Source of the DNA: Chryseobacterium gleum
Lineage (GTDB): Bacteria > Bacteroidota > Bacteroidia > UBA10329
Reading direction: 5' to 3'
Assembly: GCA_945903645.1 (NCBI GenBank)
Contig: CAMDOM010000013.1
Coordinates: 485 to 64,484 of the forward strand
Length of the DNA: 64,000 bases
The notes below the pieces were generated by a model. It was not told where the DNA came from and did not search any database. It saw nothing but the letters and a program-made list of their open reading frames with translations. The position numbers and the translations under genes are program-made. The stretch's first letter is position 1. The number at the start of each line of letters is the position of its first letter. Shown here piece by piece: positions 37,817 through 40,811 of this stretch.

Positions 37817-38545
37817 GTGGTTGAGAATCAGTTCCCTTTGCTTGAAGGAAGAGATGTAGATCGCTACCAAGTGAAATGGGACAATAAATGGGTTAAATAC
37901 GGCTTTCATTTAGCTGAACCTCGAAACTTAGAGTTATTTCAGGATGAGCGATTGCTTGCAAGAAGAACAATGGGTGAAAAAATTATCGCAGCATGGTGTA
38001 ATGAGGATATGATTTCGAATGCCTTGTTGCATGTGGTAAAAATTCCCTCAAATTATTCTGGGAAGTCGGTTTTAAGTATTGTCATATCCAAGTTATTGGC
38101 GTATTACTTCAGAAAAATGTCAGGAAGAGATGACAAAGCTTTTCCAGAGATTAAAGTGCACCAACTTCGTTCACTACCAATCATGTTTGACTGTAATCAT
38201 GATTTTAAGGTAGATTCAATTATGACATCTGTAAAAGATTTTGAAGAATCAGTTTCTAACCTTTTGAATTTACTCCAAACCCAATTCGACATCCCGAAAC
38301 CGAGCACGAAGTTGCAGCAGTGGCCGAGTTTAGATTTTAAGGGCTTTATGGCAGAGTTGGGCAAGGCCAAGGTGGTGTTGAGCTTAGAGAAACAGGAGGA
38401 ATGGATGGCTTACTTCACTAAAAAGAAAACAGAAGCCAACGCCCTGCAAAGTGAAATAGATAGAATAGATAAAGAGATTGATAAGATGGTGTATGGGTTG
38501 TATGGGCTTACACAAGAAGAAATCGCCATAGTTGAGAACGCATAA
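37817..38545 (+). pseudogene. C-terminal target-recognition fragment of a type IIG restriction-modification enzyme (TaqI_C-like), N-terminal domains missing
   Basis: LLEGRDVDRYQVKWDNKWVKYG matches the GxDIxRY motif of TaqI-like C-terminal specificity domains. C-terminus ...MVYGLYGLTQEEIAIVENA is typical of these enzymes. An in-frame TAA lies five codons upstream of the GTG start (37802-37804). No MTase or nuclease domain is present in 37602-37816. Confidence 0.45.
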
Positions 38546-38621
38546 AAACCCCGATGATCGCTTCGTGAATACCTTATTCCATTTCATTTTGCCAGTCGCA
38601 AATTGATAGTATGGTGCATGG

Positions 38622-38718
38622 GTTGTAGAGACGTTGCATGCAACGCCTCTACAACCAAATTCCGATAACCTATAGAGACGTTGCATGCAACGTCTCCACC
38701 GCATGCAACGTCTCTACC
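38622..38718. repeat. REP palindromes (GTAGAGACGTTGCATGCAACGTCTCTAC core), two or more copies, immediately 5' of the RAYT gene
   Basis: 38622-38655 is a 34-bp near-perfect palindrome; 38683-38718 has a second copy with the internal duplication gcatgcaacgtctc x2. Confidence 0.65.
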
Positions 38719-38739
38719 GAAAATCATGATATTTACCCC

Positions 38740-39330
38740 ATGGCCGATCTATTTCGCGACAAATACCGCGTCCCGTCTGCCCGCGCCCCATGGTGGGATT
38801 ATGGGCGCGATGCTGCCTATTTCATCACCATCTGCACCCAAGACCGTCAACATTTCTTCGGAGAGGTAGAGCAAGGGGAGATGCTTCTCACGGAGATTGG
38901 ACAGATTGCCCATGATTGTTGGTATACCATACCTGACCATTTTCCATTTGTTCACCTTCATGAATTCGTGGTGATGCCAAATCATGTGCATGGCATTGTC
39001 ATCATTGATCGGTATGGATCTGGTCTTCCGCCTGCAGAGACGTTGCATGTTGTGGAGACGTTGCATGCAACGTCTCTACCACCACAACCACCCAAAAACG
39101 AAAAAATGGCAGCCATATCCCCTAAATCAGGGTCGTTGTCCACCATAATCAGGTCATACAAATCTGCGGTATCAAAACAGGCGCGCGCTATCCATGCCGA
39201 TTTTGCATGGCAATCGCGTTTTCATGAACACATCATCCGTGATACCCAGAAACTCGAAAAGATCCGTTTTTACATCCTGAACAACCCTTTGTTGTGGGAA
39301 AAGGACAAATTCAATCTGAATAATCAGTAA
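38740..39330 (+). mobile_element. REP-associated tyrosine transposase (RAYT, IS200/Y1 HUH family)
   Basis: N-terminus MADLFRDKYRVPSARAPWWDYGRDAAYFITICT; HUH motif MPNHVHGIV; C-terminal WQSRFHEHIIRDTQKLEKIRFYILNNPLLW aligning with the catalytic-Tyr region of E. coli TnpA_REP; flanked by its REPs. Start at 38740 (tracked ORF 38638 reads through REPs). Confidence 0.8.
39034..39090. repeat. REP copy embedded in-frame inside the RAYT coding sequence
   Basis: gcagagacgttgcatgttgtggagacgttgcatgcaacgtctctacc encodes PAETLHVVETLHATSLP between the HUH motif and the catalytic region. Confidence 0.55.
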
Positions 39331-39404
39331 TCCTTCAAAACCTGCATTAAAATGCTCAGTCGGATTAAGTCTTCCGAAGGATTACTCGTGTGGAACTAGA
39401 CGCT

Positions 39405-39535
39405 GCCTGACTAAGTGTTATCATGCTCGTTGCAGCGTTTCCAAGGGGTATCTTCAAGGGAATAGTGCACGCACAGTTTTCTACATTCGGCAGAGAGATT
39501 GCTGCGCTAAGTAGTAACTGGGCAAAACCCGCACA
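39405..39535. repeat. intergenic repeat R1 (repeat family: ...CTAAGTGTT..GTTGCAGCGTTCC.AAGGGGT.TCTTCAA.GGAAtAgTaCACGC.CAGTTTTC.ACATTCGGCA.AGAGA..GCTGCGCT.AGTAGTAACTGGGCAA)
   Basis: About 90% identical over about 65 nt to 40920-40985 in the same orientation on the other side of the nuclease gene. Shares the CTAAGTGTT/GTTGCAGCGTTCC modules with repeats at 41.3-47.3 kb. Confidence 0.5.
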
Positions 39536-39542
39536 GCCGTTG

Positions 39543-40811
39543 TTACAATTCTGCACTAACTTCCACAGCCTTCCCATTCCCAATATACATGGTTGGCTTT
39601 CCGCCCAAATCTGCAATTCTGCCATTAACGGCTATGCGTTTACCGTCTAAAAATTCAACGGGGTCATACTCAAAATTTATAAGGTCTTCTTTTTTAATGA
39701 ATATCGTAAAAATTTCATTGGGGTATTGCTTATCCAAATTCAATAGCACATTCCCAGCACGGCTCGCGCGGCCACTTACCACTTTACCCACAACGGTGGA
39801 GTTTTTGCTACCTCCCGCGGCACGCGCAGCCATAATGGTGCTAATCTGCCCGCGCTTTAGTTGCTCAATGGGCACAGGCGGCACATCGCCACTTGCTACT
39901 TCGCTAAACCAATCGCTCGTAATTTTTTGGTGGGCTATTTCAGCCTTTTCATCGGCTCGCAGTGCCGTAAAAAAAGATAAACCTGTCAGGTGTTCAACGC
40001 TGTCAATGTCCACGGCATAAAGTTCTAAAGGCTTTGTGCCCGGTGCATTGGGCAACACAAAACCAATGGCTTTCATCTGCACTCTATCCAGCACAACCTT
40101 CCAATAATAGTTCGGGATGCTCACTTTGTTTATGCCTCGTTCTATTCTGGGCAAACCATCAGTGAGTATTGGCCCCGTCACCACATACAACATACTACCG
40201 GGATGCTGATAGATATACTCCCGTATTTTATCTTCCAAATCACCCCAAATGCCGCGGTTAAAATCACCTAACTGCGGGCTCATATTGCTATACAAATAGC
40301 TTTCGCTTAGGGCCTGCGCACTCCATCGAAAATCTGCACTGGGTGCCAAATGGCCGCGATCATATCCAAAGCCATCATAGGTATAGCTGCTGTCGGGTTG
40401 CAGCTGCTTCAAAAAATAATCGGCTTCTACCGCGCTGCCTGTGGTTACCAAACTATCCGCCCTAAAATCGTTGGTACGGCTGACGGCACCTTCTGTAACA
40501 TCAGGCAAAATAATATGTGCCACCCATCGAGCTTGTTCATGTTTTTCAGCATACGCTAGTGCCATGCTGCTATGCCATAACAACTGATCGCCCGGTTTTA
40601 CATCTGGCAATCCAATTTGCATCAGGTCATTACCTACTTTTTCCAGTTTCAGTGTTTCACGGTGTCTGTTCAATATACCTTTCTGCGCTTCCAGATGGGC
40701 AATGTTCTTTTCCGTTTCTGCAATGTTTTTCGCTATACTTTGAGCAGAAGCAAAGCTTCCTCCCAAGCAAAAAATCCAAATAAAATAAAATGCTACGAAT
40801 GCTTTTTTCAA
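39543..40811 (-). CDS. secreted DNA/RNA non-specific endonuclease (Serratia NucA-like DRGH family) with C-terminal OB-fold-like domain
   Basis: Signal peptide MKKAFVAFYFIWIFCLGGSFASA; catalytic DRGHLAPSADF motif; C-terminal region (GKVVSGRASRAGNVLLNL...IAVNGRIADLGGKPTMYIGN) looks OB-fold-like. Confidence 0.8.
   Translation of the reverse strand: MKKAFVAFYFIWIFCLGGSFASAQSIAKNIAETEKNIAHLEAQKGILNRHRETLKLEKVGNDLMQIGLPDVKPGDQLLWHSSMALAYAEKHEQARWVAHIILPDVTEGAVSRTNDFRADSLVTTGSAVEADYFLKQLQPDSSYTYDGFGYDRGHLAPSADFRWSAQALSESYLYSNMSPQLGDFNRGIWGDLEDKIREYIYQHPGSMLYVVTGPILTDGLPRIERGINKVSIPNYYWKVVLDRVQMKAIGFVLPNAPGTKPLELYAVDIDSVEHLTGLSFFTALRADEKAEIAHQKITSDWFSEVASGDVPPVPIEQLKRGQISTIMAARAAGGSKNSTVVGKVVSGRASRAGNVLLNLDKQYPNEIFTIFIKKEDLINFEYDPVEFLDGKRIAVNGRIADLGGKPTMYIGNGKAVEVSAEL

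Follow-up and report, generated by a model that had tools for sequence, protein, structure and literature searches.

REP palindromes read in frame within a RAYT gene of Chryseobacterium gleum and within its homologs

The closest described counterparts of the locus analysed here are the TnpA_REP proteins of subclass 2.4, which the available text of Quentin, Siguier, Chandler and Fichant (2018; BMC Genomics 19:475, PMC6006769) defines and equates with the RAYT group 4 of Bertels. As given in that text and its Table 1, the subclass is found in Cyanobacteria, Bacteroidetes and various other phyla, carries the signature NH[IFV]H, WQ and YIxNNP, and has a mean length of 194 aa. Its REPs have a 'double foot' (GT[AG]G...C[TC]AC), and the same text singles out the occurrence of REPs within the tnpAREP genes themselves as a striking trait peculiar to this subclass: these intragenic REPs keep the frame and generally lie between HuH and Y, and in a structural model the resulting insertion forms an extension at the periphery that probably affects activity little. 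Bertels, Gallie and Rainey (2017) reported group 4 RAYTs to be accompanied by modestly abundant flanking 16-mers, at about 14 per replicon. Additionally, GTAG REPs have been described inside other genes (Di Nocera et al. 2013; PMC3733652), and neither Nunvar (2010) nor Corneloup (2021) was found to mention REPs located within RAYT genes.

The RAYT locus and its REP copies

The window, by which we mean the whole 64-kb stretch of Chryseobacterium gleum DNA that was analysed, contains a RAYT gene together with full and half copies of a REP palindrome, the latter being assigned to neither strand:

38740..39330, + strand: RAYT gene that fits TnpA_REP subclass 2.4, 196 aa, start MADLF
38621..38656, no strand: REP copy 1 of the upstream cluster, palindromic over 36 nt (18-bp stem, 1 mismatch) and belonging to the 'double-foot' GTAG...CTAC type
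38673..38699, no strand: upstream REP copy 2, an exact 22-nt core with imperfect feet (TATA.../...CCAC)
38701..38717, no strand: extra right arm (half REP), GCATGCAACGTCTCTAC, which with upstream copy 2 makes up a '1.5-REP' unit
39034..39049, no strand: extra left arm (half REP) inside the gene, GCAGAGACGTTGCATG, which encodes A99-ETLH-V104
39052..39079, no strand: full REP inside the gene, GTGGAGACGTTGCATGCAACGTCTCTAC, translated in frame to VETLHATSL(P), with feet GTGG...CTAC

The encoded protein displays an HUH motif (H82-V-H84, positions 38983–38991, in the context MPNHVHGI), a W motif (AWQSRF, with W157-Q158) and a catalytic-type Tyr178 (39271–39273) in FYILNNP, a motif that also supplies N182. 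In an alignment of 33 homologs, H82, H84, W157, Q158, R160, Y178 and N182 are invariant. The NCBIfam model NF047646 (REP_Tyr_transpos) recovers the protein with 61.4 bits (E=8e-17), below its curated cutoff of 80 bits; judged by sequence, the protein is thus related to this model and is not an equivalog of the proteins behind it. It has no Pfam match at E≤0.01 (PF01797, Y1_Tnp, is not reached), and precomputed PF01797 matches are present on some of its homologs. A search of the PDB by sequence with a homolog profile returned E. coli TnpA_REP (4er8) as the sole match, and the same structure (4er8_A; E=2.6e-6, probability 1.00) is the top Foldseek match of an AlphaFold (AF2) model of the protein, followed by the ISDra2 and IS608 TnpA. 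The profile and fold matches thus bear out the initial annotation of the gene as a RAYT. Across residues 1–96, dN/dS is 0.26 against the closest relative, L081, and 0.06 against the more distant L082, the estimates being restricted to these N-terminal 96 codons and the C-terminal value against L082 being discarded as misaligned by one codon. Taken together, the invariant residues, the match to the TnpA_REP fold and the low dN/dS make the gene look functional, and its product a putative single-strand-DNA HUH/Tyr nuclease.

The REP family is represented in the window by a 22-nt palindrome, GAGACGTTGCATGCAACGTCTC, with three sites as against 0.01 expected from shuffles, namely 38628–38649 (1 mismatch), 38675–38696 (exact) and 39055–39076 (exact). 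All of them lie at the RAYT locus, with no further copies in the 64 kb, and half-site searches of the same stretch yielded the extra right arm at 38701–38717 and the extra left arm at 39034–39049 and no other convincing arm. This low REP density fits the group 4 figure of Bertels et al. (2017). Two full copies and one half copy, spanning 38621–38717, are thus situated 5′ of the gene, where a REP cluster had been noted earlier; the GTAG...CTAC feet of the first of these are at 38625–38652. A half and a full copy are situated inside the gene in the frame of ORF 38740–39330, and encode A99–P114 (AETLHVVETLHATSLP) between the HUH and Tyr regions, again as originally read. Unlike many of its relatives, the window gene has no REP on its 3′ side. 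When folded as single-stranded DNA, the upstream cluster reaches −32.3 kcal/mol (z = −8.8 versus shuffles) and the internal 1.5-REP unit −16.4 kcal/mol (z = −4.9 versus shuffles). An Rfam scan of 38300–39600 gave sub-threshold miRNA-like matches only, caused by the hairpins. A 43-nt inverted repeat connects the upstream and internal 1.5-REP units; the possibility that it constitutes an inversion switch was rejected, and we treat it as incidental, because L081 is devoid of this symmetry.

The AlphaFold model has a pLDDT of 80, with 114 residues above 90, and is confident in the core of the TnpA_REP fold; residues 97–114, in contrast, fall below 50. The REP-encoded residues are accordingly predicted to form a disordered surface loop that connects the HUH strand to the helix after it, such that, on this model, the enzyme, otherwise conserved and selected, is seen to hold the REP in a disordered loop. 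The distance from the HUH motif to the W motif (H84 to W157) is 73 aa in the window protein as compared to ~31 aa in 4er8. Hence, the linker is indeed ~40 aa longer than that of E. coli TnpA_REP, as had been pointed out, with only ~16 residues of the 73-aa stretch being REP-derived.

The centre of the REP (GCATGC) contains an ATG, which makes in-frame false starts ('MQRLY…') across 38638–38739 of the window, and the apparent in-frame upstream extension of the RAYT from ATG 38638 is an artefact of this ATG. The same REP-centre ATG was used by gene callers in the homologs P0002, P0003, P0009, P0044 and P0067, resulting in spurious REP-made N-terminal extensions. At the other end of the gene, the RAYT stop codon is overlapped by a perfect inverted repeat of 11 bp (AGTAATCCTTC / GAAGGATTACT, 39326–39336 / 39376–39386, loop of 39 nt), which is not a REP.

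The ORF upstream of the locus (37817–38545, + strand, 242 aa, GTG start) contains a TaqI_C specificity domain only (Pfam E=1e-19), and, there being no methylase or endonuclease part upstream of it, probably represents a type IIG R-M gene that was truncated. A 26-nt stretch at its 3′ end (38477–38502, encoding …IDKMVYGL…) is repeated with 88% identity 125 nt downstream, at 38602–38627. This second copy passes without a gap into the first REP at its GTAG foot (GGGTTGTA followed by GAGACG), and the junction is the same in L081; the repeat looks like either what is left of another R-M gene end or the product of a duplication that accompanied the arrival of the REP/RAYT. The juxtaposition of RAYTs or REPs with R-M genes recurs elsewhere: the RAYT of L029 abuts hsdM, and in L182 a REP lies inside hsdS.

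Internal REPs among homologs and the dispersed REP family

The closest relative, L081 (protein P0001), shares 89% aa identity and the same flanking DNA with the window gene (dS ~0.1), and its linker contains two complete internal REPs with a spacer between them; relative to it, the window shows a 33-nt in-frame indel, with the half copy remaining. In L082 (P0003), at 74% aa identity and dS ~1.8, a complete REP begins from exactly the same position and is followed by 12-nt arm reiterations. A three-way DNA alignment places the REP start at the identical codon position in the window, L081 and L082, and the first REP arm is identical at 19/20 positions between the window and L082 despite the saturated synonymous sites. 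That relatives at 89% and 74% aa identity share this codon position shows, on this comparison, that the internal REP of the window was inherited and is not recent; the three aligned loci likewise show its length to vary by in-frame indels and arm duplications.

Such insertions extend well beyond these three genes. Among the best 120 protein homologs, 96 have a parsable linker, and REP-derived peptides are found in nearly all of these, in copies ranging from 1 to 5–7. The linker is 40–140 aa long across the 96 and contains peptides of the ETLHATS type in 57, ETL(H/Q)CNVS in 22 and RDAINRVS in 2, with the remaining 15 being degenerate or showing different palindrome-derived peptides. The internal REPs of the homologs are positioned 3–83 aa after the HUH motif and number 1–7. 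We also surveyed 80 homologous genome loci, coming from Bacteroidota, Cyanobacteria, Chloroflexota, Ignavibacteria, the candidate phyla radiation (CPR) and Gammaproteobacteria. Defining a perfect palindrome as one with a stem of ≥10 bp and a loop of ≤4 nt, the linker contains one in 52/80 loci, with ~13 more showing 1–2 mismatches (~65/80 in all). Thus, comparison with homologs, which had been suggested as a check on whether the insert is unique to this copy, shows the opposite.

Across these loci, a GTAG...CTAC palindrome sits in the same post-HUH loop, with its sequence, frame and copy number differing by lineage. It is typically a 28-mer of the form GTAGAGAC-N6/N6′-GTCTCTAC, for which at least 22 different central sequences were seen, each of them self-complementary. 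Perfect palindromes reach a density of 4.75 per kb in the linker versus 0.063 per kb in flanking DNA (1.16 Mb); the rest of the RAYT gene has 0.175 per kb, amounting to six copies, all at aa 42–47. These linker and hot-spot densities were obtained by alignment-based mapping, since locating the HUH and helix motifs by regular expressions missed many loci and its counts are lower bounds. The cognate REP of each locus is found 2.03 times per kb of gene sequence, as against 0.86 per kb in the 400 nt around it and 0.021 per kb beyond. Two reading frames of the palindrome, VETxxxxSL and RDxxxxVST, are used in a ratio of 23 to 14; the third, which starts with TAG, was never observed (23:14:0). Hence, the surveyed sequences show the post-HUH loop to be a clade-wide hot spot for REPs in which only stop-free frames are occupied. 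The 400-nt flanks of the 52 loci contain the same REP in 22 cases, a different palindrome in 5 and no palindrome in 25, so that in 25/52 loci the intragenic palindrome is the sole local copy. Conversely, about a dozen intact members have flanking REPs and lack an internal one (L021, L043, L047, L050, L054, L058 and L063 among them), and degenerate internal copies are common among the homologs.

The copies at aa 42–47 (query numbering) constitute a second in-frame REP hot spot, located upstream of the HUH motif in the turn of a β-hairpin (E41-44/E47-50) and seen in L018, L035, L053, L073 and L079. Some genomes and loci combine REP types: one MAG codes for two RAYT paralogs, P0007 and P0053 (K9G46_09805 and K9G46_06385), whose internal REPs are of differing types (ETLHATSL versus RDAINRVST), and P0044 has an upstream REP of the ETLHATSL type and internal REPs of the RDAINRVST type. 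Thus, internal and flanking REPs need not match. Regular arrays of cognate REPs with a period of ~177–179 nt are present in L029 (12093–13016) and L136 (2075–2629). The L029 array lies between hsdM and hsdS and comprises 5.2 units of 95% identity, each with two or three left-arm reiterations (19-nt period) and a complete REP; to this '(arm)n + full REP' layout correspond the 1.5-REP units of the window and the (VETLHx)n-VETLHATSL peptides of many homologs.

The REP family is also encountered away from RAYT genes. The exact 28-mer GTAGAGACGTTGCATGCAACGTCTCTAC has 129 copies in 120 metagenome stretches, of which 13 are inside RAYT ORFs, 13 are within 500 nt of one and 1 is beyond 500 nt, while for 102 there is no RAYT in the available stretch. 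With 103/129 copies (80%) having no RAYT nearby, the family is dispersed in general, and GTAGAGACGTTGCATGCAACGTCTCTAC, itself scattered, shows strong enrichment at RAYT loci. Moreover, the identical 28-nt REP is found in frame inside the genes for MutS2, aspartate kinase, MiaA, PheS and HsdS (metagenome contigs L148, L176, L180, L142 and L182), at sites between or within Pfam domains, splitting domain V in the case of MutS2. Its presence in such unrelated genes indicates that survival in frame at permissive sites is a general property of this REP.

Origin and persistence of the internal REPs

Based on the above, we propose, with a probability of about 0.78, that the window holds an ordinary REPtron of subclass 2.4, consisting of the RAYT, a cluster of cognate double-foot REPs upstream of it and 1.5 passenger REPs in a hypervariable, disordered loop. 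We know of no RAYT for which REP transposition in vivo has been demonstrated. We posit that REPs would spread when the RAYT cleaves and joins their single-stranded hairpins, and that new copies would be strongly biased toward the RAYT locus. Those landing in the RAYT gene itself would survive only in frame and in the two permissive loops, and might then persist, duplicate, decay and be replaced while enzyme and genomic REP consensus co-evolve. Their peptide product would be a passenger and not a functional module, because its frame, sequence and presence vary and it is predicted to be disordered.

Some observations sit uneasily with the passenger view: 38/51 internal palindromes have no stem mismatches even though they lie in a hypervariable loop (these are lower-bound counts in a set chosen for being palindromic), the first arm is kept at 19/20 positions between the window and L082, and 25/52 loci have only an internal copy. 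One might hence consider the internal hairpin to be a selected cis or nucleic-acid element, be it a site at which the RAYT binds or cleaves its own gene and thereby limits it, an mRNA hairpin throttling translation, or a protected seed or master copy. In this last version, enzyme and substrate would be co-inherited and a transferred RAYT may re-found a REP population; the patchy distribution of the subclass across phyla, as seen among the surveyed loci and as presented in the available text of Quentin et al. (PMC6006769), fits such horizontal transfer. Occupation of the same loop in ~80% of the clade, the lack of a REP in the 400-nt flanks of about half of the loci and the retention of the sequence across saturated synonymous divergence would likewise be in keeping with selection on the hairpin. 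However, the intact RAYTs with flanking but no internal REPs, the frequent degenerate copies and the wide variation in position, copy number and frame all argue against an element under such constraint. Further, any of these roles is implausible in the unrelated housekeeping genes that contain the same REP in frame, and the conservation of sequence is common to all copies of the REP family rather than confined to the internal ones. The well-kept internal palindromes, the retained first arm and the loci with an internal copy only fit continual re-homogenisation as well as they fit hairpin selection. We regard a selected hairpin as an unlikely explanation.

The remaining readings fare far worse. 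The initial annotation had offered two of them, a recent self-targeting event and domestication of the REP-encoded peptide. A recent insertion peculiar to this gene copy might be suspected from the identity of the internal full copy with the upstream core and from the 43-nt inverted repeat that links the two 1.5-REP units, but it is refuted by the orthologous position shared with L081 and L082. The divergence from L082 (dS ~1.8) and the presence of the feature, already published, in most of the clade speak against it as well; we give it practically no credence. Domestication, for which one could invoke the recurrence of VETLHATSL(P/Q) in many homologs, is highly improbable, as what recurs is the DNA: in L007, L008 and L052 the other frame of the same palindromes gives RDVACNVST, and other palindromes in other lineages give the unrelated peptides ETQNFASL, RDAINRVST and GARHAVPL. 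The use of two frames (23 versus 14), the lineage-variable centre, the degenerate copies, the intact members devoid of an internal REP and the predicted disorder speak against it as well. Finally, the direction could be reversed, with the linker as ancestral coding sequence and the RAYT gene as the source of the genomic REP family, in line with the near-universal internal copies and the loci that lack a flanking one. Of the earlier proviso that a linker shared by all orthologs would mark it as the ancestral source of the REP, the first part holds, in that the orthologs do share a REP-derived linker. The second part does not, because copy number, frame and position, together with the palindrome sequence itself, differ between relatives; the same REPs also occur at the second hot spot (aa 42–47), and there are members with flanking REPs but no internal one. 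We consider such a reversal scarcely credible.

Our preferred reading of the internal REPs as passengers bears on annotation: ETLHATSL- and RDVACNVST-type peptides, 'MQRLY' extensions and variable linkers are REP DNA read through and not protein motifs, and such read-through explains the under-scoring of the family by Pfam and NCBIfam models. Should the internal hairpin prove functional after all, the RAYT would be a mobile-element enzyme that, unusually, has its own substrate inside its reading frame, and would offer an experimental handle on how RAYT and REP stay together, a standing question of REP/REPIN biology.

Relation to known systems

The window RAYT shares with E. coli TnpA_REP (YafM, REP/BIME; PDB 4ER8) the fold, the HUH and Tyr motifs, the WQxRF region reading the GTAG foot, and the flanking GTAG REP hairpins. 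It differs in that the E. coli enzyme belongs to subclass 2.2 (DHLH, WE, YIHYNP) and its HUH-to-W spacing is ~42 aa shorter, and in that the E. coli REPs are single-footed with a bulge in the stem, none of them lying inside the gene, as far as the available text of Quentin et al. (PMC6006769) describes them. With the TnpA of IS200/IS605 elements (IS608, ISDra2), which occupy ranks 2–24 of the structural matches, the window protein has in common the Y1 HUH transposase fold and subterminal single-strand hairpins. In those elements, however, the transposase gene itself moves between the hairpin ends, whereas RAYTs are present in a single copy, their hairpins being dispersed apart from them.

Short palindromic repeats lying in frame within protein-coding genes are also reportedly represented by the Rickettsia palindromic elements (RPEs), said to have been described by Ogata and colleagues in 2000. 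These and the GTAG REPs inside other genes (PMC3733652) resemble the internal REPs of the window in being short palindromic repeats placed in frame at permissive sites of coding genes. The differences are that the host gene in the window codes for the enzyme believed to mobilise the repeat, and that the enrichment in RAYT genes is far higher, at ~2 copies per kb of gene.

Closest of all is subclass 2.4 itself. The window protein has NHVH, WQ, YILNNP and a length of 196 aa, a hypervariable insertion domain follows its HuH strand, and double-foot REPs both adjoin the gene and lie in frame between HuH and Y. With every listed feature present, the protein fits subclass 2.4 / RAYT group 4, an assignment based on its motif signature together with homologs that come from the phyla of the subclass. 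Beyond what the available text of Quentin et al. (2018; PMC6006769) contains, the present analysis provides the REP densities, the second hot spot, the frame usage and the loci whose only local REP is internal. The window differs from the described members in nothing essential, its particular arrangement being a half plus a full internal REP with none downstream. The in-frame internal REP is thus an already published hallmark of the subclass, and the window locus is another ordinary member of it.
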